Shown: piece by piece, positions 9,197 to 24,341 of the stretch | Position numbering within the stretch: position 1 is the first letter of the stretch | Layout: the number at the start of each line of letters is the position of its first letter | From: an uncultured Chloroflexia bacterium | GTDB lineage: Bacteria; Chloroflexota; Limnocylindria; Limnocylindrales; CSP1-4 | Assembly (NCBI GenBank): GCA_963743815.1 | Contig: CAVURB010000002.1 | Coordinates: forward strand, 76,014-140,013 | DNA length: 64,000 bases | Reading direction: 5' to 3' | Made by a program: the position numbers and the translations under genes | Notes under the pieces: model-generated | The model's input: the letters and a program-made list of their open reading frames with translations, nothing else | Told to the model about the DNA's origin: nothing | The model's database searches: none

Positions 9197-10669
9197 CTAC
9201 GGGGTCGTGGCGATGGCCGCGGCGGCCTCGGCGACGATGTCGAGCAGCGCGTTGGGGAAGAGTCCGAAGACGACGGTCAGCGTGGCTGCCGCGGCCAGCC
9301 CGCCCCAGAGCAGGGCGCCGTGCCGAAGTGCGGGTGCGTCACTGCTCGGATCCCGCATGAACATGTAGACGACGACCCGGAGGTAGTAGAACGCGGCGGC
9401 GGCGGCATTGAGCACGGCGATGACGGCCAGGATCGTCAGCGGCCCGCCGGCCTCGACGGCGGCAAGGATCACGTACGCCTTGCCGAAGAACCCGGCGGTC
9501 GGCGGGATGCCCGTCAGCGACAGGAGGAACAGCGTCATGAGGATGCCCAGGATGGGCTCCTTGCGTCCCAGGCCGGCGAACGTGTTCAGCGAGGACGTAA
9601 CGCCAGAGCGCCTCTGGAGTGCGGCGATGATGGCGAACGCGCCCAGGTTCATGAACGTGTACGCCGCCCCGTAGTAGAGCAGGCCCTCGAGCCCGTCCTG
9701 CTCCCCACCGGCCCAGGCCGCAAGGCCCACGAGCATGTACCCGGTGTGGGCGATGGAGCTGTACGCGAGCATGCGCTTGACGTTGTCCTGGGTCAGCGCG
9801 ATGAGGTTGCCCACGGTCATCGTAAGCGCGGCGAGGACGATCATGACCGGCAGCCACACGTCGGCGAGCGGACCGAGGGCCTCCACGAACAGCCGCAGGA
9901 TCAGGGCGAATGCGCCGATCTTGGGCCCGACCGAGAGATAGCCGGTGATGGGCGTGGGGGAGCCCTGGTACGCGTCCGGCGTCCAGTAGTGGAACGGGAC
10001 TGCCGCGATCTTGAACGCGACGCCGGTCGTCATGAACGCCAGTCCCATGGCGAGGCCCGGCGAGAGCGGTGCGGCACCGGCGACGATCTCCGCCAGCGCC
10101 TCCGCGACGCCGTCCACGCGCGTCGTTCCGGTCAGACCCCACACGAACGCCAGGCCGAACAGGAAGATGGCTGAGCTGAACGACCCGAGGAGGAAGTACT
10201 TGATCGCGCCTTCGGTCGAGTACGGGTCGGACTTGTGATACCCCGCCAGCAGGTAGCCAGGCAGGACCATGAGCTCAAGGCCCAGGAACAGCAGCAGCAG
10301 GTCCGCGGAGCCCGCGATGAGCATCGCGCCGGTCATCGCGAAGATGAGGATGATCGCGAACTCGGCGATCGGCAGGTTCCGTGGGAGCAGGTAGTCGGGC
10401 GCGAAGAGGATCGTGAGGACGACGATCGCGATGAACAGGACGTCGAGGAACGTCGTCAGCGCGTCAACCGTGTACGAGCCGCCGAATGCCGTGGCCGGCG
10501 TGGCACCGACGACGATGGTGATGACCGCGGTGATGCCCAGGCCGATGAGCGCCGTGGCGATGGCGATCGGCGAGCGGCCCGGCCAGATGAGGTCGACGAT
10601 CAGCACCGCCGCCGCGGTCAGGACGCCCGCGATGAGCGGGGCGATGGTGACGAGATCTTCGGCGTTCAC
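9197..10669 (-). CDS. nuoN: NADH-quinone oxidoreductase subunit N
   Basis: EGAIKYFLLGS, FKIAAVPFHYWTPDAYQGSP, KRMLAYSSIAH, GIPPTAGFFGK. Confidence 0.96.
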   Translation of the reverse strand: MNAEDLVTIAPLIAGVLTAAAVLIVDLIWPGRSPIAIATALIGLGITAVITIVVGATPATAFGGSYTVDALTTFLDVLFIAIVVLTILFAPDYLLPRNLPIAEFAIILIFAMTGAMLIAGSADLLLLFLGLELMVLPGYLLAGYHKSDPYSTEGAIKYFLLGSFSSAIFLFGLAFVWGLTGTTRVDGVAEALAEIVAGAAPLSPGLAMGLAFMTTGVAFKIAAVPFHYWTPDAYQGSPTPITGYLSVGPKIGAFALILRLFVEALGPLADVWLPVMIVLAALTMTVGNLIALTQDNVKRMLAYSSIAHTGYMLVGLAAWAGGEQDGLEGLLYYGAAYTFMNLGAFAIIAALQRRSGVTSSLNTFAGLGRKEPILGILMTLFLLSLTGIPPTAGFFGKAYVILAAVEAGGPLTILAVIAVLNAAAAAFYYLRVVVYMFMRDPSSDAPALRHGALLWGGLAAAATLTVVFGLFPNALLDIVAEAAAAIATTP

Positions 10670-12337
10670 TGCACGCCACCTTCCGCGGGGGTCGACGGCG
10701 TGGCTGTGCCCGCGGCTCCGGCCTCACCGCGCATGAGCGCCCAGAGGACACGCGCGAGGATACCGACCACCACGAGCCCGATCAGCAGGAGCGTGACCTC
10801 GCCGCCGATCGCGATCACCGTGCCGGCCTCGGCGGCAGCGACCGTCGCCTCGACCGTGCCCTGGACGAGGTCCAGGAGCAGGCCCGGCTGGACGCCGAAG
10901 ACCACGACGAGCGTGGCGAGCGGGATGAGCGTGAGGATCTCGACCGGTTCGATGTCGGTGAGGTGGTCGCCGAGGCCCTTGAGGAAGTCGGAAAGCTCGC
11001 CGAACACGATGCGTCCATACATGAAGAGCAGGTAGCCGGCCGCGAGGACCATCACGGTCGCGGCGATCGCCGCCGCCCACGGACTGACCGCGAACGTCCC
11101 GACCAGGGTCAGGAATTCCCCGACGAATCCGGACAGGCCGGGCAGGCCGGCAGAAGCGAACACGAAGAACCCGAACAACGCGGCATAGACGGGCGTTCGC
11201 CCGGCGAGCCCGCCCATCTTCGCGATGGTCCGGTCGTGCGTGCGTTCGTAGATAACCCCGACGAGGAGGAAGAGGGCACCCGTGATGAGGCCGTGATTGA
11301 TCATCTGGAGTACCGCGCCCTGGATGCCCTGCTCGTTGAACACGAAGATGCCCAGGGTCACGAAGCCCATGTGGCTGACCGATGAGTACGCCACCAGGCG
11401 CTTGAGGTCGGGTTGGATGAGCGCCACGATCGCGCCGTAGATGATCGCGATGAGCGAGAGCACGATGATCGCCGGCGCGAGTGTCTGGGCAGCGTCCGGG
11501 TAGAGCGGTAGCGCGAACCGGATGAAGCCGTAGCCACCCAGCTTGAGCAGGACGCCGGCGAGGATCACGGAACCCGCCGTGGGCGCCTCGGTGTGCGCGT
11601 CCGGAAGCCACGTGTGGAACGGGAACATCGGGACCTTGATCGCGAAGGCGAGGAAGAACGCGAGGAATGCCCCCAGCTGGAGGGCGGAGGCGAACCCGCC
11701 ATCGGGGCTTGCGGCGAACTCGCGCAGCGTCTCGAAGTCGAAGGCGCCCGACCCACGAGCCGGTCACGGACTGGTAGGCGAACGCCGTCGCGAGGATCGC
11801 CACGAGCATCAGCAGCGAGCCGACGAGCGTGTACAGGACGAACTTGATCGTCGCGTAGATGCGGTTCGCGCCGCCCCAGATCCCGATGATCAGGTACATC
11901 GGGACGAGCACGATCTCCCAGAAGATGTAGAAGAGGAACAGGTCCAGGGCGAGGAAGACGCCGATCATCCCGACCTCGAGGACGAGGAAGGCGATCATGT
12001 ATTCCTTGATCCGCGTCTGGATCGGCTTGAAGCTCGCGAGCAGGCAGATCCACGTCAGCGTCGTGGTCAGGACGACGAGCGCCGCCGACAGCCCGTCCAC
12101 GCCCAGCTTGTACTGGATGCCGAACAGCGGGATCCAGTCGACGACTTCGACGTACTGGAACCCGGCCTCGGCCGGGACGAACCGGGCGAGCAGGACGAGC
12201 GACGCGACCCAGGTCGCGAGCGCGAACGCGAGCGCCACCGGGCGCGTCACCGACGAGGGCAGCACGGCCACCACCAGGGCTCCGACGAGCGGGAGGAAGG
12301 TGATGATCGAGAGGATCGGGATGCCGTTGAGGTCCAT
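10666..12337 (-). CDS. nuoM: NADH-quinone oxidoreductase subunit M; frameshift near 11750
   Basis: DLFLFYIFWEIVLVPMY, FPFHTWLPDAHTEAPTAGS, KRLVAYSSVSHMG, GLPGLSGFVGEF. Confidence 0.94.
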
Positions 12338-12340
12338 CGC

Positions 12341-14332
12341 CTAGTTCCCCGCCAGCAGCAGGTACGCGCCGGCCATGACGATCAGCCCGATGGCGATGCC
12401 CAGGGCGTAGTTCTGGACCCGACCGGTCTGGACCTGGCGCAGGCCGCGACCCGACTGCACGGTCGCTCGGCCGATGCTGTTGACCGTGCCGTCCACGACG
12501 TTGCGATCGAACCAGAACAGCGCGTCCGCCACGCGGCCGCCGATCACGATGAACAGCAGGTGGTTGAGCTCGTCGAACCACCACTTGTTGAGCGAGGCGC
12601 GATAGAGGAACGGCACCTTGGCCGTGAGCTCGCGGACCTGCTCGGGTCGGGCCGGCAGGTGCAGGCCGGCGATGTCCGTCCCGAACAGTCGCCACGCGAT
12701 CGCGATCCCGAACGCGGCGATCCCGACGCTCGTCAGGATGAGGATGCCGTCGATCCCGAAGAGCTCGTAGGCCACCTCTTCGTGGCCCAGTAGCTCCAGG
12801 CCCTCGTGGAAGACCGGCTCGAGCCAGTGGTGGATGGTGCTGTCGCCCAGTGGCAGGCCCAGCGCCATGCCGAGGAACACCGATGGGATCGCGAGCAGGA
12901 TGAGCGGGATGGTCATGACCCACGGGGATTCGTGGACCTTGTCCCAGACCGCCTTGGGTCCGCGGAACTCGCCCCAGAACGTGAGGGCCATCAGCCGGAA
13001 CATGTAGAAGGCGGTGAGTCCGGCCACGATCCAGCCGACGGCCCAGACCCACTCGAAGTGGAGCTTGAACGCCTCGCCCAGGATCTCGTCCTTGGAGAAG
13101 AACCCGGCCAGCGGCGGGATGCCCGCGATGGCGATCGACCCGATCAGCATCGTGATGTACGTGATCTTGATCTTCTTGCTCAGGCCGCCCATGTTCCGCA
13201 TGTCCTGCTCCTCGTGGACGGCGTGGATCACCGACCCCGAGCCCAGGAAGAGCAGCCCCTTGAAGAATCCGTGCGTCATCAGGTGGAAGATCGCGGCGGT
13301 GAACGCCCCAACGCCCAGAGCCGCGAACATGTAGCCCAGCTGCGAGAGCGTGGAGTACGCGAGCACCCGTTTGATGTCCGTCTGGGTCATCGCGATGCTC
13401 GCGGCAAGGATGGCCGTGAAGATGCCGACGGCGGCAACGATGACCATCGCGTCCGGGGCCGAGGCGAACAGCGGATTGGCGCGCGCAACGAGATACACGC
13501 CGGCATTGACCATCGTCGCGGCGTGGATGAGGGCGGACACCGGGGTGGGGCCCTCCATCGCGTCCGGGAGCCAGACGTGCAGCGGGAACTGGGCGCTCTT
13601 GCCCATCGCGCCCGCGAACACGAGGAGCGCGACCACGAACAGCGGGATCGGGTTCGCGCTGCCTTCGTGGAGCAGGATCTCGATCGATTGGCGGATGTTG
13701 AGCGTCGCCTCACCGGCCGCGCCCGTGTTGATGAAGATCGCCATGATCCCGAGCGCGAACCCGACGTCGCCGACCCGGTTGACGATGAACGCCTTCTTCG
13801 CCGCCAGCATCGCCGACCGCTTGCGGTACCAGAACCCGATGAGCAGGTAGCTCGATAGCCCGACCAGCTCCCAGGCTACGAAGACGACGAGCCAGTTGTC
13901 GGCGAGGACGAGCAGGAGCATCGAGAACATGAACAGGTTCAGGTAGGCGAAGAACCGCCAGTACCCGGGGTCGTGGCTCATGTACCCGATCGAGTACACG
14001 TGCACCAGCAGCCCGATCGTCGTGACGACGATGAGCAGGCATGCCGTCAGCGGGTCGATGAAGATGCCGACGTCAACCTGGAACTCGCCAGCCGGGATCC
14101 ACGTGAAGAGCGGGATCTCGTAGCCGTGGAGGTCGTCGGTGCCCTCGATGAGCGGCGCCGTCCCGGTGAGCACGCTCACGACCAGACCCATCGCGATGAC
14201 CCACACCACGAAGATCGCGAGGACCGGGAACCAGTGCGCCTGCTTGCCGAGGCGGCGACCGATGAGGGCCGTCAACGAGAAGCCCACCAGCGGCAGGATC
14301 AGCAGGAGCGGGGCCAGCGACTCCAGGCTCAC
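12341..14332 (-). CDS. nuoL: NADH-quinone oxidoreductase subunit L
   Basis: [54 protein letters not shown]. Confidence 0.97.
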
Positions 14333-14640
14333 TGGCGCATCGCGTCGTACTCGTCGACGAGCGGCGTCTTCTTGTTGCGGTAGATCGCGATGACGATCGC
14401 GAGGCCCACGGTGGCCTCAGCGGCGGCCACGGCCATGACCATCAACGCGATGACCGACGCCTGACCACCCAGCTCGGGGATGAAGGCGCCGAACGCGATG
14501 ATCGAGAGATTGACCGCGTTGAGCATCAGCTCGATCGACATGAGCATGCTGATCGCGTTGCGCCGCGCCAGGAAGCCGAACGTGCCGATGGCGAACAGGA
14601 TCCCGGACAGGACGAGGTAGGCGTCGAGGCTGTTGCTCAC
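14329..14640 (-). CDS. nuoK: NADH-quinone oxidoreductase subunit K
   Basis: [33 protein letters not shown]. The GTG overlaps the nuoJ stop. Confidence 0.95.
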
Positions 14641-15230
14641 GACGGCCCACCCGGTTCGCGCTTGGCGAGGAAGACCCCGCCGATGACGGCCGCGAGCAGG
14701 AGCACGCTCACGATCTCGAACGGGAAGACGAAGTCCTCGAACAGCAGGGCCGACATGTCGTCGGTGGCGATGCGGACCCGCTCGCCGACCTCGCCCCAGT
14801 CGGTCGCGCTGACGGCGAGGGCGATGACGACGGCGATGATGACCGAGGCGATCGCCGCCGCCCCGGCCTGTGTCTGGAAGACGAGCCGTGCCGGCGCGTC
14901 CTTCGTCTGCGTGAGCATGATCGCAAAGAGGATCAGGACGCTGATCGCGCCGATGTACACGATCACCTGCGCGGCGCCGATGAGCGGCGCCCCGATCAGG
15001 ACGTAGATGCCGGCGAGGGCCCCGAAGCAGACGATCATCGCGAGGCCGCAGCGGATGATGTCGCGCATCGTCACGACCAGCAGTCCGGACCCGATCATGA
15101 TCGAGGCGAAGATCCAGAACAGGGCATCCTCCCAGTCCTGGCCGAGGAACACGAGCATCAGCAGCGCGATGCCGAGCACCGCGCCCATGACGGCGAGGCC
15201 GATGACGATCGGGATCAGCTTCTGCAACAC
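14637..15230 (-). CDS. nuoJ: NADH-quinone oxidoreductase subunit J, with an extra N-terminal TM segment
   Basis: [37 protein letters not shown]. Confidence 0.93.
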
Positions 15231-15241
15231 GGGCGTGGCGG

Positions 15242-17890
15242 CTACTCGTGCCCGCCGGGGCCGAGGGCGGCCACGGCGCCATGCCCGTCGCCATGGTCAT
15301 GCCCGTGCCCGTGGCCGTTCCCACCCCCCTGGCCGCTCCCCGCCGCGATGCCGGTGATGGACGGCGGCAGCACCGGGAGCATCCGCGAGCTGTCGATGAA
15401 CCGGCCGTCGGCGGCGGCGCGGGTCGCCCAGTCGCGCTCGCGGCGGATGTAGGTCACCTCGGTCTCGCGATCGATGGCAGCGAGCGCCATCAGGTCGATG
15501 GTCGGGTTCGCCCGACCGGTGTGGGCGAGCTCGATATCGGCGCCGTCACGCAAGGCGTCGTACGGGCATGCATCCACGCAGATGCCGCACAGGATGCAGC
15601 GGCTCTCGTCCACTTCGTACTTCTGGAGGACGCGCGGCTTGGGCATGAGGGCGCCCGTGGGGCACGTCTCGGCGCACCGTCCACACGACACGCAGGGCGT
15701 GTCGTTGAGGCTCATGTCCAGCGGCGTCGTGACGAGCGTGTCGAACCCGATGCGCATGAAGTCGTAGCACGCCGCCCCGACCACTTCGGAGCAGACCTGG
15801 GCGCAACGGCCGCAATCGATGCAGCGCGACGGCTCGCGCAGGATGAACGCGTGCAAATCGTCGCGGACGTAGTCGTGGTTGATGCCGGTGAACCGGTTCT
15901 CCGTCACGGACCGATAGCCCGCGCCCTGGTGGTACTGCGGCTCGAGGGTCCGCAGCGTCGTGCCGTACTCGATGCCGAGACGGCGCAGGTCGCAGAACCC
16001 GATCGCCTCGCACGTGCACTGGAGGCAGCGCGTGCTCTCCGCGACGGCCGCCTCGCGCGTGTACGGGAGCTCGTACTCGATGTAGCTGTGGTTCCGCTCC
16101 TCGGCCTCGAGGGCGGTCATCCGGTAGCGCGGCTCCTTGACCTCGGCGGTGAACGGCACGATGGAGAGGAACTCGGGCTGCGGCTCCGCGAGCGTCTGGC
16201 GGGTGCGGATCGCAGACAGGTCCAGGCCCTTGAGGAAGGCGTCCACGGCATAGGCCGCGCGCCGGCCTTCGGCGATCGCCTGGACGACCGTCGCGGCGCC
16301 GATCCGGACGTCGCCCGTGCCGAAGACGCCTGGCCGCCCGGTCTCGAAGGTGACCGCGTCCGCCTTGAGTCGGTGCTGCTTGGTCGCCTCGGGCCCCTCG
16401 GAGCCTGGGCCGATCCAGGTGAGGTCCGGCCCCTGGCCGATGGCCAGCAGGACCCGGTCGCACGGGATGATGAACTCGGTGCCGGGGGCGGGCTCCGGCC
16501 GACGGCGTCCGGACGCGTCCGGGGCACCCAGCTGCATCCGGATGAACTCGACCCCGGTGACGTTGCCGTTCTTGTCCACGACGACCCGGGTGGGGCCAGC
16601 CTGGAAGATCGCGGTGACGCCTTCCTCGATGGCTTCGTGGACCTCGCCGGCCGCCGGCATGTCCTTCATGTCGCGCCGGTAGACGAGCGTGACCTCGCTC
16701 GCTCCCTGGCGGACCGACGTCCGCACGCAGTCCATCGAGGTGAACCCGCCACCGATGACGACGACGCGCTTGCCGGCGTGATCGGGGTACTCGAGTCCCA
16801 GGGTGGCGGTGCGCAGGTACTCGAGACCGTCGAGGACCTCGGCGGCGTCCTCGCCCGGGATCCCGAGCTTGTTGGTGTCGTAGCAACCGATGGCGATGAC
16901 GACCGAGTCGAAGCCCTGGTTCGTCAGGTCGTCGAGGGTGAAGTCGCGACCCAGCCCGGCGTTGCAGACCATCTTGCCGCCGAGCCGCGTGACCGACTCG
17001 TACTCCGCCTCCAGGACCTCGACCTTGGGCAGGCGGTACTGCGGGATCCCGTAGCGGAGCATCCCGCCCGGCGCCGGGTCGCGCTCGAAGATCGTGACGT
17101 CGTGCCCGGCGAGGAGCAGGTAGTACGCGGCGCTCATGCCGGCCGGCCCCGAACCGATCACGGCCGCGCGGCGACCGCTCCGGACCTGCTGTTCGAACGG
17201 GACGGGCGGGTCCACGCCGTCGTCCAGCATGGACTTGAGGACCTGGTCGCCGGCATAGCGATGCGAATCGCGGATGGCGATCGCCTCGTCCACCTCGTCG
17301 CGCCGGCAATGCTCCTCGCACGGGGCCGGGCAGACGCGCCCAAGGACGGACGGGAAGGGGATCGTCCGCTTGAAGATCCGGGTGCTCTCGCGCCAGTCGG
17401 CCTCCGCGTTCGCCTTGAGGAAACCCGGGATATCGATGTGGCTGGGGCACTTGTTCTGGCAGGGCGGCAGGCAGTAGGCGTTGTGGTCGCTGAAGATCAG
17501 CTCGAGGTTCGTCCGGCGCAGCCGGCGGACCTCCTCGGTCTGGGTCTGGACCTTCATCTCGGGTTCGCAGACGCGCGAACAGGAGATCGGCGGGTGCTCC
17601 TCTCCCTCCACTTCGACGACGCACATCCGGCACGCCCCGAAGCCCGGGAGCTTGGGCTCGTAACAGAGCGTCGGGATCTCGATCCCGTTGTCGCGGCAGA
17701 CCTCGAGGATGGTCTGACCCTCGAACCCTTCGACGACGCGGCCATCCACCTCGATGCGGATCCGCGCCGTGGACTGCGGGCGCTGCGGTGACTGGGTCTC
17801 GAGGAGTCGCTCGGCCAGCGAATCCGCGTTGGTCCTTGCTGTCGTGGCGGGGACGGGGCGGCCTTCGGGACGGGCGAGGGTATCGGTCAT
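15242..17890 (-). CDS. Multidomain Fe-S flavoprotein: NuoG-like N-terminus, inserted GltD/NfnB-type FAD/NAD(P)H domain, 2x[4Fe-4S], C-terminal half of NuoI and a His-rich tail
   Basis: IPTLCY...GACRMC...ISC ([2Fe-2S]); [15 protein letters not shown]; [12 protein letters not shown]; GSGPAG; GGGFTSMD...YRR; [11 protein letters not shown] and [12 protein letters not shown]; [26 protein letters not shown] coupled to the nuoF stop (TGATG). Confidence 0.9.
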
Positions 17891-19182
17891 CAGGGGGCCT
17901 CGGTCGCGGCCGGCACGGGTCGGCTGGCGGGATCGAACTGGGAGCTGAAGTATCGCATCCCGCTGGTCAGCGGAAGGGTGGCCAGGCGCTCGTGGTCGCA
18001 CAGCGCCGACGCGACGATGTCGTGGGCGAGATCGGTCGCCAGGACCGGATCGGTGGGTCGGGAGAGGCCCGCCTCGCGGCGCCCGACGATCTCGGCGAGG
18101 CGTTTCGTCCCGATGCGGCACGGGATGGACTTACCGCAGGCCTCGCCCGAACAGAACCGGGTCAGGACGCCGACCAGTTCCACGAGATCGGTCCGGTCGT
18201 CGACGACCATGACCGAGCCCGACCCAAGGTGGGCGCCTGCCGCACGCAGCCCCTCGAACGTGTATGGGGTGTCGAGGGCATCCGGTGGCAGCAACCCGCC
18301 CGACGGTCCGCCGACGAGTACGGCCTGGAGCGACCGCTTGGCCGGCAGCTTCCCACCGAGCGCGACCACGTCGCGCAGCAGCGTCCCAAGGGGCACTTCG
18401 GCGATGCCGTCGCCGCTCGGCGTCCGGAGCTGGACGAGGACGGTGCCCGGGCAATCGGGCGCACCGATCGTCGCGAACGCTTCGGCGCCTTCGCGGATGA
18501 TCCACGGGACGGCGGCCAGCGTCTGGACGTTGTGGACGACGGTCGGCATCCCGAAGAGCCCGCGCTCAGCCGGGTGGGGCGGACGCTGCTCGGGCTGGCC
18601 GCGCTTGCCTTCGAGGGCCTTGAGCAGGACGGTCTCCTCGCCCAGCATGTAGGCGCCCTGGACCGGGCGGACCGTGATCGCAAGGTCGAACCCCGAACCC
18701 AGGATGTCCGTGCCGAGGAACCCCGCGTCCACTGCGGCGTCGATGGCCGCCGTCAGTCGTGCGATGACGTCGGTGTCCTCCGCGCGCACGGCGATGAACG
18801 CCTCGCTTGCTCCGATCGCGTAGGCCGCGATGGCGACGCCTTCCACGACGGCGAACGGGACGCGCGCCATGAGCGTGCGGTCGGTGTGCGAAGCGGGATC
18901 GGCGCCGTAGCCGTTGGCGACGACGTAGCGTCGTGGAGCGTCCGTCGCGCTCGCCGTGCGCCACTTGTCGCCCGCGGGGAAGCCGGCACCGCCACGGCCG
19001 CGCAGGCCGCTCGCGCCGATCTCCGCGGTCACCGCGGTCCCGCCTAGATCGCGGACCGCGCGGCGCAGCCCGGCGAACGCGCCCGCGGCGACGGCCGCAT
19101 CGAGGTCGGTCGGATCGGCGGCGTCAGCACGCGCGAGGAGGACCGTCGGCCAGCCGGCCGGCGTGGGGAGGAGGTCGGTCAT
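17890..19182 (-). CDS. nuoF: NuoF-like FMN subunit with degenerate motifs
   Basis: SGLRGRGGAGFP, GAYMLGEET, GLFGMPTVVHNVQT, VGGPSGG, LGSG, EACGKSIPCRIG. ATG at 19182. Confidence 0.88.
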   Translation of the reverse strand: MTDLLPTPAGWPTVLLARADAADPTDLDAAVAAGAFAGLRRAVRDLGGTAVTAEIGASGLRGRGGAGFPAGDKWRTASATDAPRRYVVANGYGADPASHTDRTLMARVPFAVVEGVAIAAYAIGASEAFIAVRAEDTDVIARLTAAIDAAVDAGFLGTDILGSGFDLAITVRPVQGAYMLGEETVLLKALEGKRGQPEQRPPHPAERGLFGMPTVVHNVQTLAAVPWIIREGAEAFATIGAPDCPGTVLVQLRTPSGDGIAEVPLGTLLRDVVALGGKLPAKRSLQAVLVGGPSGGLLPPDALDTPYTFEGLRAAGAHLGSGSVMVVDDRTDLVELVGVLTRFCSGEACGKSIPCRIGTKRLAEIVGRREAGLSRPTDPVLATDLAHDIVASALCDHERLATLPLTSGMRYFSSQFDPASRPVPAATEAP

Positions 19183-19184
19183 GC

Positions 19185-19862
19185 CTATGCCCGCGCCGGG
19201 GCGCCCGGGCGCCCGTTCCCGCCGAGCGCGGCATCGAGTGCGGCCAGGTAAGTGGATTCGGCGGGCCGGTGCGCGGCGACCGCGGCGGCCTGCGCGCTGG
19301 CCGTCTCGGGTTCGAAGCGCAGGTGTGCGTAGTAGCTCGCCGTGCCGTAGATCATCGCGTACCACGCGCCACTCTTGTGGCTGATCCGCTTGAGCGCGGC
19401 GACCGGCAGGTATCCGTAGGCGGCCTGTGTCGACTCGAGGATGGCGAGCATCTGCGCTGGGTCGTGGTCGTATTCCTCGAGGACGGCGTCCACCAGCGCC
19501 AGGTCCACCGCGTCGAACGGCCGGTAGGCTGGGTCGGGAACGGGCCGGCCCGATCGTCGCAGGGCGCTCTCCTCGCGCCGCTCGCCGTACGTCTCGGGGG
19601 CGCCCCAATGGACGTGGTAGCGGCCGCGCGTGTCCATGCCGCCCATGTCGATGCACTCGATGGGGCACGCCTGCGCGCACTGGAAGCATGTCTCGCACTT
19701 GAGCGTCCCGTACTCGTCGTAGAGCAACTGGAGCCGGCCGCGGAACTTGTGCGGCACGTCGAGTCGCACCTCGGGGTACTTCACCGTGACCTTCGGTTCG
19801 AAGACGCGGCGAAGGGTCACCGCCATGCCCTTCATGATGCCGAGGCCCGGGACGATGCTCAT
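19185..19862 (-). CDS. Fusion of the NuoI N-terminal half to a NuoE N-terminal helical domain lacking [2Fe-2S] cysteines
   Basis: KGMAVTL...TVKYPE...FRGRLQL...KCETCFQCAQACPIECI (only one Cys motif), then LAILESTQAAYGYLP...IYGTASYYAHL. Confidence 0.88.
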   Translation of the reverse strand: MSIVPGLGIMKGMAVTLRRVFEPKVTVKYPEVRLDVPHKFRGRLQLLYDEYGTLKCETCFQCAQACPIECIDMGGMDTRGRYHVHWGAPETYGERREESALRRSGRPVPDPAYRPFDAVDLALVDAVLEEYDHDPAQMLAILESTQAAYGYLPVAALKRISHKSGAWYAMIYGTASYYAHLRFEPETASAQAAAVAAHRPAESTYLAALDAALGGNGRPGAPARA

Positions 19863-19872
19863 GCCGAGGTCC

Positions 19873-21213
19873 TCAACTCTTGACCACGACGATGGCCGCG
19901 GCCGTGACGAACAGATTGAGCAGGGATGCCGGGAGCAGCCACTTCCAGGCGAAGTCCATGAGCTGGTCGACGCGCACGCGCGGCAGCGTGCCTCGCATCC
20001 ACACGAGGACGAACACGAGGGTGTACGTCTTGAGCATGAACCAGAGGATACCGGCGACCCAGTCCAGGCCGATGTACGCCCACGCGCCGATCATGCCGAC
20101 GATGAACAGGTTGGCGAGGACGAACCCCGCGATGAGGGCCTGCCACGCCTTGATCCGTGAACTCGCGATCCAGAACGGGACGGCGAAGGCCAGGGTCAAT
20201 GCGACCGGCACGATCCCGATGAAGAGCAACAGGCCGATACCCCAGGTTCCGGGGTCGATCGCGAGGTCGAGCGGCCACGGCCACGGGAACGGCGCATTCC
20301 AGCCGCCGAGGAACAGCGTCACCGTCAGCGCCGCGATGATGAAGACGTTGACGAACTCGGCGAAGTAGAAGAACCCGAAGCGCATGCCCGAGTACTCCGT
20401 CGCGTAGCCGGCGACGATCTCGGAGTCCGCCTCGGTCAGATCGAACGGGGTTCGGTTCGCCTCGGCCGTCGCGGCGATGAAGAAGATCAGCGCCCCGAGC
20501 GGTTGCTGGAAGATGTACCAATCGGTGAACCAGCCAGCCTGGTTACCCACGATGGTGTTGAGGCTCATCGTCCCGGCCAGGAGCAGCAGCCCGACCACGG
20601 AGAGGGTCAGGGGGATCTCGTAACTGACGGCCTGAGCGGCCGCACGCAATCCCCCGAGCAACGAGTACTTGTTGTAACTCGCCCAACCGGCCATGAGCAG
20701 TCCGACGACGGACAGGCCGCCGATCGCGAAGAAGTACAGCAGGCCGAGGTTGAAGTCCGCGCCGTACAACCCCGGGGCGAACGGGATGACCAGCAGCGTC
20801 ATCACGCTGGCGAGGTAGACGACGACCGGGGCCCAGGTGAAGACGATGGCATCGGCGCCGGTGGGTGTGAAGTCCTCCTTCATGAGCATCTTCAGGCCGT
20901 GCACGACCGAGATCAGCGAACCATATGGACCCACCCGATCCGGACCGATCCGCAGGTTCATCATCGCGATGCCCTTGAGCTCCATGTAGCCGACGATGAA
21001 TGCGGTCGGGATCGTCATGAGCAACACCGCCGTCGCCGCGACCACGAATCGGACGATCGGGAGGTTCGCGGCCAGGATGTCAACGACGGCCTCGCCGAAC
21101 AGCACGATCGCGGCCAGCAGCCCGATCGAGAGTGCCAGCAGCGCCGGGATCGCCGTGAAGACGATCTTCCCGGGCAGCGTCAGCCGATTCCAGCCCCGCG
21201 CGAGGGTGGTCAT
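19873..21213 (-). CDS. nuoH: NADH-quinone oxidoreductase subunit H, enlarged (446 aa)
   Basis: RIGPDRVGP, NKYSLLGGLRAAAQAVSYEIP, AEANRTPFDLTEADSEIVAGYATEYSG, RGTLPRVRVDQLM. Confidence 0.95.
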   Translation of the reverse strand: MTTLARGWNRLTLPGKIVFTAIPALLALSIGLLAAIVLFGEAVVDILAANLPIVRFVVAATAVLLMTIPTAFIVGYMELKGIAMMNLRIGPDRVGPYGSLISVVHGLKMLMKEDFTPTGADAIVFTWAPVVVYLASVMTLLVIPFAPGLYGADFNLGLLYFFAIGGLSVVGLLMAGWASYNKYSLLGGLRAAAQAVSYEIPLTLSVVGLLLLAGTMSLNTIVGNQAGWFTDWYIFQQPLGALIFFIAATAEANRTPFDLTEADSEIVAGYATEYSGMRFGFFYFAEFVNVFIIAALTVTLFLGGWNAPFPWPWPLDLAIDPGTWGIGLLLFIGIVPVALTLAFAVPFWIASSRIKAWQALIAGFVLANLFIVGMIGAWAYIGLDWVAGILWFMLKTYTLVFVLVWMRGTLPRVRVDQLMDFAWKWLLPASLLNLFVTAAAIVVVKS

Positions 21214-21227
21214 GCCGCCACGACCCC

Positions 21228-21350
21228 GTGAGGGCGTTCGGACGAGATCACGCGAAGGCGCCGGCGAGCAGCGCAGCGAGCGCGCTCAGACGCGCGTGAG
21301 CGAAGCAGCGCAGACGGCAACGCACGCGTGATCCGTCCCAGTGTCCTCAC
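21228..21350. repeat. Imperfect inverted-repeat element of about 120 bp (REP/MITE-like) between nuoD and nuoH
   Basis: Left arm GTGAGGGCGTTCGGACGAGATCACGCG; reverse complement of the right arm GTGAGGACACTGGGACGGATCACGCG. The core has two AGCAGCGCAG copies. Confidence 0.6.
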
Positions 21351-22597
21351 TTATCGACGCCTCCCATGATGGGATCAAGGCTGGCCATGATGGCCATCGT
21401 GTCGGCGATCAGGTGGCCCGAGGTCATGAGGCCGACGGCCTGGAGGTGGATGAACGAGGGGTCGTGGATGCGCATCCGGAATGGCTGGTCCGTTCCGTCG
21501 CTGACGACGTACGCCGCGTACTGGCCGCGCGGGCCTTCGATCCCGGCATAGGCGCGACCCGGCCGGGGCCGAAGGAGGCGCGGCAACTTGGCCATGACCG
21601 GACCGTCGGGCATCTGGTGGAGGCACTGGTCGATGATCCGAAGGCTCTGCTTGACCTCGTCCATGCGCAGCAGGTAGCGCGCGAGGCAGTCACCCTCGGA
21701 GCGCGTCGGGATGTCGAAATCGAGCTCGGGGTAGACGCTATACGGGTGTGCCCGGCGCACGTCGAAGGGCACGCCGGTCGCGCGCAGGTTGGGTCCCGTC
21801 ATGACCATCCGCAGGGCGGCCTTCGAGTCGATGGTGCCGAGGCCGCGCATCCGTCGGACGAAGATCTCGTTCTCGTTGAGGAGCGCCTGCCCCGCCTCGA
21901 TCTGCTCGGTCGCTCGGCTCATCCAGTCGCCGAGGCGGCTCATGAACTCGTGGTTGAGGTCGCCGTTGACGCCACCGATGCGGAAGTAGTTGAACAGCAT
22001 CCGCTGACCGGTGAGGCTCGCGAGCATGTCCACGATCTCGTCGCGCTCGATGAACGACCAGAGGATCGGCGTCAGGCCACCCAGGTCCAGGGCCATCCAG
22101 CCGAGGAACAGCGAGTGGCTCGCGATCCGGTTGAGCTCGCCTGAGAGGACGCGGATGTACTCCGCCCGCCGCGGGACGTCCACATCGAGCAGCTTCTCGA
22201 AGGCCATCACGCCCGGCCACTCGCAGAAGAGCGAGCTCACGTACTCCAGCGGGTCCAGGTAGCAGATCGCCTGGTGGTAGTCGGCGTTCTCGCACAGCTT
22301 CTCTACGCCGCGGTGGAGGTAACCCAGGACCGGGTCGAGATCGACGACCTTCTCGCCGTCGAGCTTGAGCACGACCCTGAGCACCCCGTGCGTGGAGGGG
22401 TGCTGGGGCCCCATGTTGATGAACATCTCGCCGTCGCCGAGCGTGTAGAACTCGGCCTCGCGCTCGGTGCGCGGCGGGTACGGCGGCACGGGCTCGAAGA
22501 CGCCGAGGTCGCGGTCCAGGGTGACCCGCGGGTCATCGGCGGACTGGTGCGGGGTCTCGTGACGGTGGCCGTCGGTTCGAGGGGGCGTGGCGGTCAT
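21347..22597 (-). CDS. nuoD: NADH-quinone oxidoreductase subunit D
   Basis: NMGPQHPSTHGVLR, GYLHRGVEK, ELNRIASH, EGPRGQ, IADTMAIMASLDPIMGGVDK. Confidence 0.96.
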   Translation of the reverse strand: MTATPPRTDGHRHETPHQSADDPRVTLDRDLGVFEPVPPYPPRTEREAEFYTLGDGEMFINMGPQHPSTHGVLRVVLKLDGEKVVDLDPVLGYLHRGVEKLCENADYHQAICYLDPLEYVSSLFCEWPGVMAFEKLLDVDVPRRAEYIRVLSGELNRIASHSLFLGWMALDLGGLTPILWSFIERDEIVDMLASLTGQRMLFNYFRIGGVNGDLNHEFMSRLGDWMSRATEQIEAGQALLNENEIFVRRMRGLGTIDSKAALRMVMTGPNLRATGVPFDVRRAHPYSVYPELDFDIPTRSEGDCLARYLLRMDEVKQSLRIIDQCLHQMPDGPVMAKLPRLLRPRPGRAYAGIEGPRGQYAAYVVSDGTDQPFRMRIHDPSFIHLQAVGLMTSGHLIADTMAIMASLDPIMGGVDK

Positions 22598-22626: not shown

Positions 22627-23175
22627 CTACGTGCCGGTCCGACGGACCAGCGCCGTCGCGGGCGCGTTCCTCGGAGTGTGGGTCCGCTCCATCGGCCGGA
22701 CACCGGCACCGGGCGAGCGCGCGGCATCGTCAGGCAGGTAGAAGTCCTTGCGGAGCGGGAAGCTCTGGTAGTCGGGCGGCATGTAGATGCGGCGCAGGTC
22801 CCGGTTGCCTTCGAACGTGATGCCGAACATGTCGTAGGCCTCGCGCTCCATCCATTCCGCGCCCTTCCAGAGGAAGGTGGCGGACGGGACGCGAGGGTCG
22901 TCCTGCGACAGGCCGTCGGCGATGACCCGCAGCCAGTCAGGGGTCGTCGGGCTCCAGAGGTGGTAGATGACCTGCATCGATTCGCCCGTATCCACGCCAC
23001 ACAGGTCGGCGAGGAACTCGAACCCGAACTCCGGCTCGTCGTGGAGCGCGGTCAGGACACCGACGACGTCGCCGGCCCCGATGCGGATCTCGGTCTCGTC
23101 ATGCCGCTGGCGGATGGGACCCGCGAGTTGCTCGGCGAACCGGGTCTCCAGCCGGGTCCTGAACGCGCGGTCCAT
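22627..23175 (-). CDS. nuoC: NADH-quinone oxidoreductase subunit C
   Basis: LADLCGVD, AEWMEREAYDMFGITFEG, FPLRKDF. ATG at 23175. Confidence 0.93.
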   Translation of the reverse strand: MDRAFRTRLETRFAEQLAGPIRQRHDETEIRIGAGDVVGVLTALHDEPEFGFEFLADLCGVDTGESMQVIYHLWSPTTPDWLRVIADGLSQDDPRVPSATFLWKGAEWMEREAYDMFGITFEGNRDLRRIYMPPDYQSFPLRKDFYLPDDAARSPGAGVRPMERTHTPRNAPATALVRRTGT

Positions 23176-23177
23176 GT

Positions 23178-23882
23178 CTAGACGTCCTCCGGGACGGTCG
23201 GGCCGATCGCCCGGTCCGGCCACTCGCCGCGGCGGTCCTTGATCAGTTGCTGGAGCTTCATCATCCCGTAGATGAGGCCCTCGGGACGGGGCGGGCAGCC
23301 CGGGACGTACACGTCGACCGGCATGACCCGATCGATCCCCTCCACCGTCGAGTAGCTGCGCTTGTAGCGCCCACCCGAACACGTGCAGTCGCCCATCGCG
23401 ACGGACCACTTGGGTTCCGGCATCTGCTCCCAGAGCCGCACGAGCGGACCAGCCATCTTGGTCGTCAGCGTGCCGGCGACGATCAGCACATCCGCTTGGC
23501 GAGGGCTGGCCCGGAACGGGAACATGCCCCAGCGGTCCATGTCGTTCCTGGACGTCGCCGTGGACATCATCTCGATCGCGCAGCACGCGAGCCCGGATAG
23601 CAGCGGCCAGAGGCTGTTCATCCGGATGAGATCGAGGACGTGGTCCGCGGTCGTCGGGATGACCTCGAGCATGCCGCCCCAGCGGGCGTCGTCTCGACGA
23701 CCGGCGTCCCCCGCCCCGAACTCGGCGAGGTGGGTGATGTCACTCGCGCGGCCACCGTCGTAGGCAGCTGGATCGGCGGCCTGCCAGAGCGTGTTCGGGA
23801 CGACGATCGGGATCGTCAGGTCCGTGGTGCCGTCGGTCGTGGCGACCGCCGTCTCGTCCGGGGATCCGGGCTTCAGTGCCAC
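23178..23882 (-). CDS. nuoB: NADH-quinone oxidoreductase subunit B
   Basis: [43 protein letters not shown]. Confidence 0.95.
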
Positions 23883-24229
23883 GTCAGCGCCCCCTTCCGC
23901 CAGGCGTAGGCAAGGCCCAGCAGCAGGATCGCGACGAAGATCATCATGCTGACCAGGCCGCCCAACAGGAGGTCCTGGAAGGCGATGGCCCACAGGTAGA
24001 TGAAGATGACCTCGATGTCGAACGCCACGAAGAGCAGGGCGTAGATGTAGAAGGAGAGCCCGAAGCGTCCGTGCGTGTCGCCGTAGGTATCGATGCCGGA
24101 TTCGTAGGGCAGGCCCTTGTGCTCGTCACCGCGATTGCGGTGAGAGATGAGCCACGCCGCGCCGATCGTCAGGAAGACGAACGACACGCCCGCGACGGCG
24201 AAGCCGACGACGTACCAGATCCCGGTCAA
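23873..24229 (-). CDS. nuoA: NADH-quinone oxidoreductase subunit A
   Basis: [38 protein letters not shown] start after an AAGGGAG RBS. Confidence 0.93.
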
Positions 24230-24341
24230 TTGAACTCCCTTCGAGCGGCGCACCCGTTGATCTGGGCGGTACGCGACTCGGACACGACGACCCTGGAGCG
24301 GCGGGCAGACGAACCCGCGACGGGCCACCTACGCCGCGGTC

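Follow-up and report, generated by a model that had tools for sequence, protein, structure and literature searches.

How does a bacterium assemble a respiratory complex I when the gene for one of its core subunits comes in two pieces? The question is raised by a 64,000-nucleotide stretch of DNA (the window; positions 76,014 to 140,013 of contig CAVURB010000002.1, assembly GCA_963743815.1, ~70% G+C) from an uncultured member of Limnocylindria, widespread soil and freshwater bacteria of the phylum Chloroflexota. Complex I is among the best-studied bioenergetic enzymes, and NuoI is treated as one of its indivisible core subunits. The window carries a complex I operon in the order nuoA-B-C-D-H-X-F-Y-J-K-L-M-N, every gene of which lies on the minus strand, from 24238 down to 9197. 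An initial annotation, made from the sequence alone, had read this order from intact, closely coupled open reading frames (ORFs), and both readings hold: X and nuoF are separated by 2 base pairs, and the nuoF stop and Y start share one base (TGATG). The eleven core complex I genes (A, B, C, D, H, I, J, K, L, M, and N) are thus all present in one operon, with NuoI in the form of two halves, one in X and one in Y. We give a probability of roughly 0.65 to the interpretation developed below, namely that this operon encodes the working respiratory complex I of Limnocylindria, with NuoI built from X and Y together.

Two complementary halves of NuoI

Comparison with the NuoI model (NCBIfam TIGR01971; 121 positions, family cut-off of 113 bits) matched X residues 12 to 76 to model positions 1 to 64 (E = 2.7e-13) and Y residues 753 to 795 to positions 71 to 113 (E = 1.7e-12), which is the complementary, non-overlapping coverage that the initial annotation had predicted. 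When the first 100 residues of X were scanned by themselves, the nine best families were NuoI models, as were the four best families for the last 138 residues of Y. Solved structures divided in the same way: X residues 8 to 81 aligned to residues 6 to 79 of Mycobacterium smegmatis NuoI (8e9g_I, 180 amino acids) and Y residues 750 to 795 to residues 84 to 129 of the same chain, and the NuoI half of Y also aligned to residues 93 to 144 of 8qby_I. The proposed location of the missing half at the C terminus of Y was therefore correct, with boundaries (15491 to 15643) close to the 15480 to 15623 first suggested.

Each half has one CxxCxxCxxxCP motif. The four Cys of the X motif were present in 84 of 84 aligned sequences, and the Y motif was kept in 57 of 58. 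These and the other Cys counts cover the window plus 83 (X), 73 (NuoF), and 57 (Y) of the 90 loci L009 to L098; rows that were cut by contig ends or fell outside 195 to 300 (X), 415 to 470 (NuoF), or 780 to 935 (Y) amino acids were left out, and four further loci were removed from alignments A1 and A2 for internal stops. Neither X nor Y taken singly reaches 113 bits or carries both motifs. Profile matches and Cys positions agree with the earlier reading of X as a NuoI start with a single CxxCxxCxxxCP motif, followed by a NuoE N-terminal domain. Polyferredoxins top the Protein Data Bank (PDB) search for the Y C terminus only through summed repeats; as far as sequence comparison goes, the NuoI identity of this half is set by a match that includes the flanks of the motif and by its complementarity to the match in X.

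Conservation of the split in Limnocylindria

A pattern scan of one genome per species returned 150 relatives of X, the best 80 loci of which were retained. Almost all carry the label of a Limnocylindria, Limnocylindrales, Chloroflexota, or "Chloroflexia" bin; one lies on a closed 3.1-Mb chromosome. Among loci with sufficient flanking sequence, nuoH was upstream of X in 76/76, nuoF followed X in 71/71, Y followed nuoF in 59/60, and nuoJ followed Y in 57/58; Y residues 753 to 795 were covered within one hit in 58/60. The search of relatives for the same split, which the initial annotation had called for, thus found H-X-F-Y-J in essentially all of the 80 loci. In a 301-genome sample of the phylum, full-length X was encoded by all genomes of the three families of the class (15/15, 2/2, and 15/15).

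Proteins related to X and near its full length numbered 2,943 at E ≤ 0.001. Longer proteins containing X comprised 66 singletons fused to NuoH or NuoF, such as frameshifts in long-read bins would be expected to produce, and a whole NuoI was found in none of them. At L020 (about 12000 to 12300) the contig turns into unrelated sequence ~50 codons into Y, the result of a chimeric assembly or else of a genuine rearrangement. Four loci with X 66 to 82% identical to that of the window (L030, L051, L013, and L075) come from records titled Polarisedimenticolia, Eisenbacteria, and Anaerolineaceae (twice); these titles are probably binning or labelling errors, not a spread across lineages.

No sequencing run contained more than 0.15 of the sampled sequence words, and none was listed as RNA. 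From four runs, nothing longer than short contigs of relatives was recovered, among them one of 953 bases that spans the X/nuoF junction. The partial matches came from metagenome runs recorded as soil, rhizosphere, bog, and freshwater sediment, a lead rather than a claim about habitat.

The only complex I in these genomes

An intact nuoI elsewhere in the genome had been named as a point to check. In the window's own genome (a 72%-complete bin) and in five long-read relatives (one a closed chromosome), no NuoI match exceeded the 113-bit cut-off; the best two matches in the window's genome were X and Y, and in each of the five relatives they were the two halves, ~4.2 kb apart. Each of five genomes had a single NuoH locus. 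The complex containing X-F-Y is the only complex I encoded in Limnocylindria genomes. A 49-bit match to NuoI positions 14 to 106 was observed in one relative inside a 600-amino-acid open frame (G003:C2:75407-75718); it lies outside the nuo operon and not beside a NuoH.

A second NuoE/NuoF locus was found in all five genomes tested (own genome, G000:C3, about 21175 to 22288). In G002 (L108, 2887 to 8349) it encodes a 615-amino-acid NuoE-NuoF fusion, a molybdopterin oxidoreductase ORF, and a NuoG-like FeS protein that includes a molybdopterin Fe4S4 domain. This locus looks like, and probably is, an NAD-linked formate dehydrogenase, and we rejected it as a canonical nuo input module encoded elsewhere. 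Rejected likewise was the idea of X-F-Y as a stand-in for a missing transhydrogenase, given PntB in 5/5 genomes.

An Stn/Nfn-like input module between the halves

Beyond its NuoI part, X continues through a conserved 34-residue linker into a NuoE-like domain. The best matches of residues 118 to 187 were the small subunits of NfnABC- and StnABC-type enzymes (9bov_C residues 20 to 89, E = 1.4e-13, and 8oh5_A residues 14 to 86). Because the match to the NuoE model stops early (X residues 125 to 186 cover just positions 2 to 63 of 145) and there is no Cys beyond residue 70, X by its sequence lacks the 2Fe-2S cluster of NuoE.

The nuoF product has the flavin mononucleotide (FMN) and N3 domains (Pfam Complex1_51K and NADH_4Fe-4S). 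Its residues 14 to 420 align to residues 152 to 559 (of 630) of 8a6t_B, and the extra N- and C-terminal FeS domains of HydB, StnB, and NfnB are absent. NuoF reaches 341 bits, short of the equivalog cut-off of 559, and within the trio the NuoG model is matched over the N-terminal ~100 residues only, so that a canonical NuoE-F-G module is not what X-F-Y encodes. Position 352 of NuoF, the second Cys of the N3 motif, is T, S, or A in 67/74 sequences and C in 7/74, the latter confined to seven distant loci of the order nuoB-X-F-Y; C344, further upstream, persists in only 64%. A missing Cys at the second position is the pattern of 3Fe-4S ferredoxins, so the cluster beside FMN may be a 3Fe-4S center or have a non-Cys ligand.

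Y resembles the large subunit of Stn/Nfn enzymes over most of its length: residues 44 to 775 align to 9bov_A residues 4 to 699 (E = 3e-158), and residues 42 to 778 align to StnC (8oh5_C) residues 2 to 702 (E = 9e-139). The features of such a subunit (2Fe-2S domain, GltD-like FAD/NADPH domain, and NuoG-type clusters) are all present. The GltD-like region matches PRK12814 (E = 2e-162) and is modelled by AlphaFold2 with a predicted local distance difference test score (pLDDT) of ~80 to 96; its FAD and dinucleotide glycine motifs and a YRR stretch are invariant or nearly so across 54 sequences. StnC has the motifs HxxxCxxxCxxxCP and CxxCxCxxxxC at its junctions (PMC7483475), and both were found in Y, with the Cys of residues 618 to 748 kept in 57/58 sequences. 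The ~480-residue formate-dehydrogenase-like domain of StnC and NfnA is replaced in Y by the NuoI C-half and then a poorly conserved tail: Y ends ~100 residues past the start of that domain in 9bov_A and 8oh5_C, and no molybdopterin family was among the best 25 of 36 Pfam families for Y.

The statement of the initial annotation that the operon has no intact nuoI, nuoE, or nuoG is therefore right for nuoI and for NuoE, which is reduced to its N-terminal domain. NuoG is not simply missing, because Y has a NuoG-type N-terminal 2Fe-2S domain and NuoG/HydA-type 4Fe-4S motifs set around an inserted GltD-like domain. We also observed that H210 of Y (about 17261 to 17263), invariant in 54/54 sequences, aligns with Lys170 of StnC and NfnA, which is described as an unusual ligand of the FAD-proximal 4Fe-4S cluster whose mutation impairs Stn activity (PMC10482914, PMC11829005).

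Proposed path of electrons

Taking as shown how the genes are laid out, that this layout is conserved, and that no further NuoI or NuoH locus is present, we infer the following mechanism. In the 2[4Fe-4S] ferredoxin fold, each cluster has as ligands the three leading Cys of one motif together with the Cys that precedes Pro in the other. Because one motif lies on X and the other on Y, the ligands of N6a and N6b would come from both sides of the X/Y interface, and both chains would be needed to form either cluster. Physical reconstitution of NuoI from X and Y in this way is highly probable, and the bridging clusters could, as the initial annotation had proposed, clamp the input module onto the quinone module. 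In NfnABC, the NuoE-like N-terminal domain anchors the small subunit to the Rossmann fold of the NuoF-like subunit (PMC11829005), so X would link NuoF with one NuoI half, and the other half would be linked through Y to the NuoG-type cluster chain.

In the Stn and Nfn enzymes, electrons are described as passing from NADPH through FAD and five clusters to FMN, with two more clusters forming a dead-end branch (PMC10482914, PMC11829005). The NuoI C-half is joined to Y at this branch point. The dead end would here become the exit, leading to N6a, N6b, N2, and quinone, with NADH entering at the FMN of NuoF and NADPH probably at the FAD site of Y; the chances that NADPH is a second donor seem to us about even. 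The minimal Bfu bifurcation site consists of B1-FMN-C1 with an exit through B3/B4 (PMC11829005). No counterparts of C1, B3, or B4 were found in X or NuoF, there being no thioredoxin-like domain and NuoF corresponding to the HydB core, so electron bifurcation of the Bfu type appears unlikely. The likeliest activity, judging from the domains present, would be proton-pumping NADH:quinone and NADPH:quinone oxidoreduction without bifurcation.

The order of the trio would be explained by its ancestry, because stn genes run in the order NuoE-like, NuoF-like, GltD/NuoG-like: an stnABC-like operon placed into nuoI would yield NuoI-N::NuoE, NuoF, and NuoG'::NuoI-C between nuoH and nuoJ. A single insertion of this kind has, in our estimate, one chance in two of being the origin. 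The full combination of a complex I that oxidizes both NADPH and NADH, an independently recruited module, a staple of shared clusters, and a flavin-adjacent cluster that is perhaps 3Fe-4S or non-Cys ligated is put forward more tentatively, for Limnocylindria and for some other Chloroflexota.

Comparison with known systems

Canonical complex I (Thermus thermophilus, 2fug; M. smegmatis, 8e9g) shares with the operon the eleven membrane and quinone-module genes in their usual order, the N2 Cys pattern of NuoB, the FMN and N3 domains of NuoF, and, once the halves are combined, the features of NuoI. It differs in that NuoI is here on two chains, NuoE is represented by an N-terminal domain without the 2Fe-2S cluster and fused to the NuoI N-half, and the NuoG-type Y lacks the large C-terminal domain, has a GltD-like insert, and ends in the NuoI C-half. 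The input genes, which in canonical operons lie between nuoD and nuoH, are here between nuoH and nuoJ, and the N3 motif is without its second Cys.

With the Stn/NfnABC enzymes of the Bfu family (8oh5, 9bov, and 9n5u) the trio shares its gene order, the first ~700 residues of the large subunit (Y) including both junction motifs, the N-terminal domain of the small subunit (X residues 118 to 187), and the core of the B subunit (NuoF). Missing are the C1 2Fe-2S domain, the B3/B4 domains, and the tetramer-building formate-dehydrogenase-like domain; the bifurcation site and the ferredoxin exit, both of which mark the family, are gone with them. Lys170 is replaced by His, and the module, joined here to the NuoI halves, is encoded together with membrane subunits. 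One report names Firmicutes, Proteobacteria, Synergistetes, and one archaeon as carriers of Stn clusters, and not Chloroflexota (PMC7483475).

The 11-subunit NDH-1/Fpo and mbx-like complexes are built on the same modular principle, in which a conserved membrane and quinone core is combined with an electron-input part that can be exchanged. The nearest account found in the literature concerns the mbx-like operons of Thermotoga and proteobacteria, where NuoI is said to be replaced by a GltD-related flavoprotein (PMC4758237). In the Limnocylindria operon, in contrast, NuoI is kept but divided, the GltD-like domain lies inside a NuoG-type subunit, NuoF is present, and no hydrogenase-type (NiFe-binding) Cys pairs were seen by eye in the NuoD translation. 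The initial annotation knew of no complex I with this layout, and searches of the literature outside subscription journals, main texts only, likewise turned up neither a divided NuoI nor a NuoI-NuoE fusion nor an operon of this kind.

Weighing the interpretation

Several points weigh against a working complex I with NuoI built from X and Y. The half scores are modest (50 to 52 bits for X over model positions 1 to 65 and 40 to 47 bits for Y over positions 71 to 114, against the 113-bit cut-off), and, motif by motif, polyferredoxins match the Y motif about equally well. NuoF falls well below its equivalog cut-off, and without the second N3 Cys the NADH branch might have unusual properties. Solved structures of complex I place NuoI and NuoE far from each other, so a linker of 34 residues between them in X implies a rearranged arm. 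With PntB in 5/5 genomes, there is no evident need for a further connection between NADH and NADPH; L020 breaks off within Y; and the two-operon gene sets of other Chloroflexota (below) lack nuoJ-N of their own, so the module may work in a different setting there. All Limnocylindria sequences come from metagenome bins.

Co-folding of X residues 1 to 118 and Y residues 745 to 845 with two 4Fe-4S clusters scored 0.33, 0.36, and 0.33, versus 0.00 in all three controls, with a partner pLDDT of at least 52 and a contact agreement between runs of at least 78%; the tool grades this result as weakly supportive. When the tool was calibrated, 58 of 80 solved complexes passed this mark, as did 2 of 110 mismatched pairs, and passes with scores of 0.60 or less accounted for just 7 of the 80 solved complexes and for both of the passing mismatched pairs. 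By the tool's own account, a score of this size misleads more often than not unless the pairing was probable beforehand, which also counts against the reconstitution, and the pass may reflect likeness to NuoI structures already solved. In AlphaFold2 single-chain models, the NuoE-type domain of X (pLDDT 80 to 97) and the 2Fe-2S and GltD domains of Y are confident, and residues 25 to 115 of X and 620 to 882 of Y fall below 50; the latter range includes two ferredoxin-type motifs that are folded in solved StnC.

These low-confidence regions and the weak co-folding score would suit the view that the halves never rebuild the NuoI fold and act instead as docking pieces binding one cluster or none, with electrons reaching N2 by another route. 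A replacement ligand might then be C70, a fifth Cys present in 89% of X sequences, or C708, an additional conserved Cys of Y. C70, however, is absent from distant relatives of X (e.g., L092), in contrast to the four motif Cys, which never vary; the C-P ending of both motifs is the one seen where a fourth Cys ligates the neighboring cluster; the halves always co-occur; and there is no other NuoI to pass electrons to N2. We regard this view as improbable. It is even less likely, to a degree that makes it hard to sustain, that X-F-Y is a soluble Stn-like enzyme that happens to be encoded inside the nuo operon of an 11-subunit complex with another donor. The trio does lie away from most nuo genes in other Chloroflexota, and for Y and the NuoE portion of X the nearest relatives of known structure are soluble enzymes, but X starts with a NuoI-specific N-terminal segment, the stand-alone trio is preceded by nuoB in genomes that have nuoA-C-D-H without nuoB or nuoI, the formate-dehydrogenase-like domain that mediates Stn/Nfn tetramers is absent, and taking away X and Y would leave the complex of Limnocylindria with no NuoI at all.

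A complex I assembled from X and Y could also exist with the GltD-like site of Y serving as an NADP+-reducing output (through transhydrogenation or reverse electron flow) or surviving as a structural relic. Stn/Nfn enzymes are reported to be reversible, with NADP+ reduction as their physiological role (PMC10482914, PMC7483475), and with H210 in place of Lys170 the potential of the FAD-proximal cluster may differ. The near invariance of the nucleotide-binding motifs and YRR nonetheless points to a live site, if not to a direction, and PntB already provides a transhydrogenase; we consider an output or relic unlikely. As for an artefact, be it misassembly, a frameshift, or a decaying pseudogene, the incompleteness of the window's bin and the frameshifts in long-read bins of this group (the singleton fusions above and broken hits at some related loci) are outweighed to the point that it can hardly be credited. 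Gene boundaries and order recur in 80 loci of different species-level genomes, the closed chromosome included, the ORFs are intact and their identity high, the family spans a class and beyond, and an intact nuoI at this position was seen in no relative. The split nuoI is a conserved feature and not an assembly error, as the initial annotation had argued; what it had listed as potentially fatal (a misassembly, relatives with an intact nuoI, or a self-contained Y motif without similarity to NuoI) was not encountered. A NuoI divided between X and Y thus remains the interpretation that we prefer.

Occurrence outside Limnocylindria

Outside the class, at least 13 genomes in five families encode a protein ~30% identical to X that spans both of its parts, and the seven loci examined there have the X-F-Y trio with Y ending in the NuoI C-half. 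The complete genome G170 has a nuoB-X-F-Y operon among unrelated neighbors, and G216 has the order nuoA-B-C-D-H-X-F-Y. Four of these Chloroflexota genomes, G170 among them, have an operon of nuoA-C-D-H, without nuoB, nuoI, or nuoJ-N, and a separate nuoB-X-F-Y operon (L099, L100, L105, and L106 with L092, L090, L089, and L091). Together the two operons encode the whole peripheral arm plus NuoA and NuoH, with no antiporter-like subunits of their own. Because nuoB-X-F-Y pairs with an operon lacking nuoB and nuoI, X-F-Y is tied to quinone-module subunits in these genomes as well. An ordinary 14-gene nuo operon is whole in G170 and G134, and the same genes are in two blocks in G047.

In an unrooted NuoD tree (23 rows), the NuoD proteins of the nuoA-C-D-H operons group with that of L094, a locus with the split type within its operon (support of 100/98), and the canonical paralogues stand apart from the split types, with one canonical row on a long branch. 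The tree, having no outgroup, gives no direction between the Limnocylindria and the scattered layouts.

Database annotation has missed the identity of the X proteins. Source records name those of Limnocylindria "NAD(P)H-dependent oxidoreductase subunit E" or "ferredoxin" and relatives of the second type "hypothetical protein [Ktedonobacterales bacterium]" or "ferredoxin." The nearest Protein Atlas clusters, all from Chloroflexota where the phylum is known, are called "subunit E family protein" or "hypothetical protein."

Implications

If NuoI is indeed built between two chains, its clusters would represent a new way of attaching an input module and offer a natural system for studying how the arm is assembled. 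A respiratory complex I would be able to oxidize NADPH, an ability that, to our knowledge, has been shown for no bacterium. The dead-end branch of the Stn/Nfn enzymes would have a working counterpart, and a plausible route would exist for grafting soluble flavoprotein modules onto membrane complexes. Carriers are apparently common, with thousands of related protein clusters, and the complex is the only complex I that they have.

Features of the operon

The coordinates of genes, domains, and motifs are collected in Table 1. The Cys pattern in the NuoB translation, read by eye, is presumably that of cluster N2.

Table 1. Genes, domains, and motifs of the complex I operon (positions in the window)
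Feature	Position	Strand	Basis and remarks
nuoA	23873..24238	-	Start approximate; ORF and translation; order as in related loci
nuoB	23178..23882	-	Start approximate; translation has PGCPPRPE
nuoC	22627..23175	-	Translation; tblastn synteny
nuoD	21347..22597	-	416-amino-acid ORF; 73-94% identity across 80 related loci
nuoH	19873..21213	-	446 amino acids; extra stretch near C terminus
X	19185..19862	-	225 amino acids; NuoI N-half fused to cluster-less NuoE N-terminal domain
X residues 8-83, NuoI N-terminal helix and first half of ferredoxin fold	19614..19841	-	TIGR01971 positions 1-64/65; 8e9g_I
X Cys motif C56-x2-C59-x2-C62-x3-C66	19665..19697	-	Four Cys in 84/84 aligned sequences
X residues 118-187, NuoE-like N-terminal helical domain	19302..19511	-	9bov_C and 8oh5_A matches; AlphaFold2 pLDDT 80-97
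nuoF	17890..19182	-	430 amino acids; core only
NuoF N3 motif, second Cys replaced (CGKSIPC)	18118..18153	-	Residues 344-355
Y	15242..17890	-	882 amino acids; 2Fe-2S, GltD-like FAD/NAD(P)H domain, NuoG-type FeS motifs, NuoI C-half
Y residues 42-118, NuoG/HydA-type 2Fe-2S domain	17537..17767	-	Pfam Fer2_4, E = 1.9e-19
Y residues 125-560, GltD/NfnB-like: two 4Fe-4S motifs, FAD and NAD(P)H sites	16211..17518	-	Fer4_20, Pyr_redox_2
Y residues 618-748, CxxCxCx5C motif and two ferredoxin-type motifs (NuoG/HydA-like)	15647..16039	-	Fer4_Nqo3 at 683-748
Y residues 750-800, NuoI C-half	15491..15643	-	TIGR01971 positions 71-114; 8e9g_I and 8qby_I alignments
Y Cys motif C765-x2-C768-x2-C771-x3-C775-P	15563..15598	-	Kept in 57/58 aligned sequences
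nuoJ	14637..15230	-	ORF; behind Y in 57/58 loci with room
nuoK	14329..14640	-	ORF
nuoL	12341..14332	-	ORF
nuoM	10724..12337	-	ORF
nuoN	9197..10669	-	ORF

The nuoH product is long (446 amino acids) and is matched by the Pfam NADHdh model in two pieces; because of this division, and because residues ~317 to 364 are left unaligned to more distant relatives, the sequence suggests an inserted hydrophobic stretch near the C terminus. The C-terminal tail of Y (15245 to 15330) is rich in Gly and His, with a consensus of GNGHxGxGH; close relatives retain the tail in part, and distant ones lack it. At L095 (14297 to 15543), from another family of the same class, two extra genes of 134 and 281 amino acids lie between Y and nuoJ, and the product of the longer one has, by eye, the look of a metallo-beta-lactamase fold.

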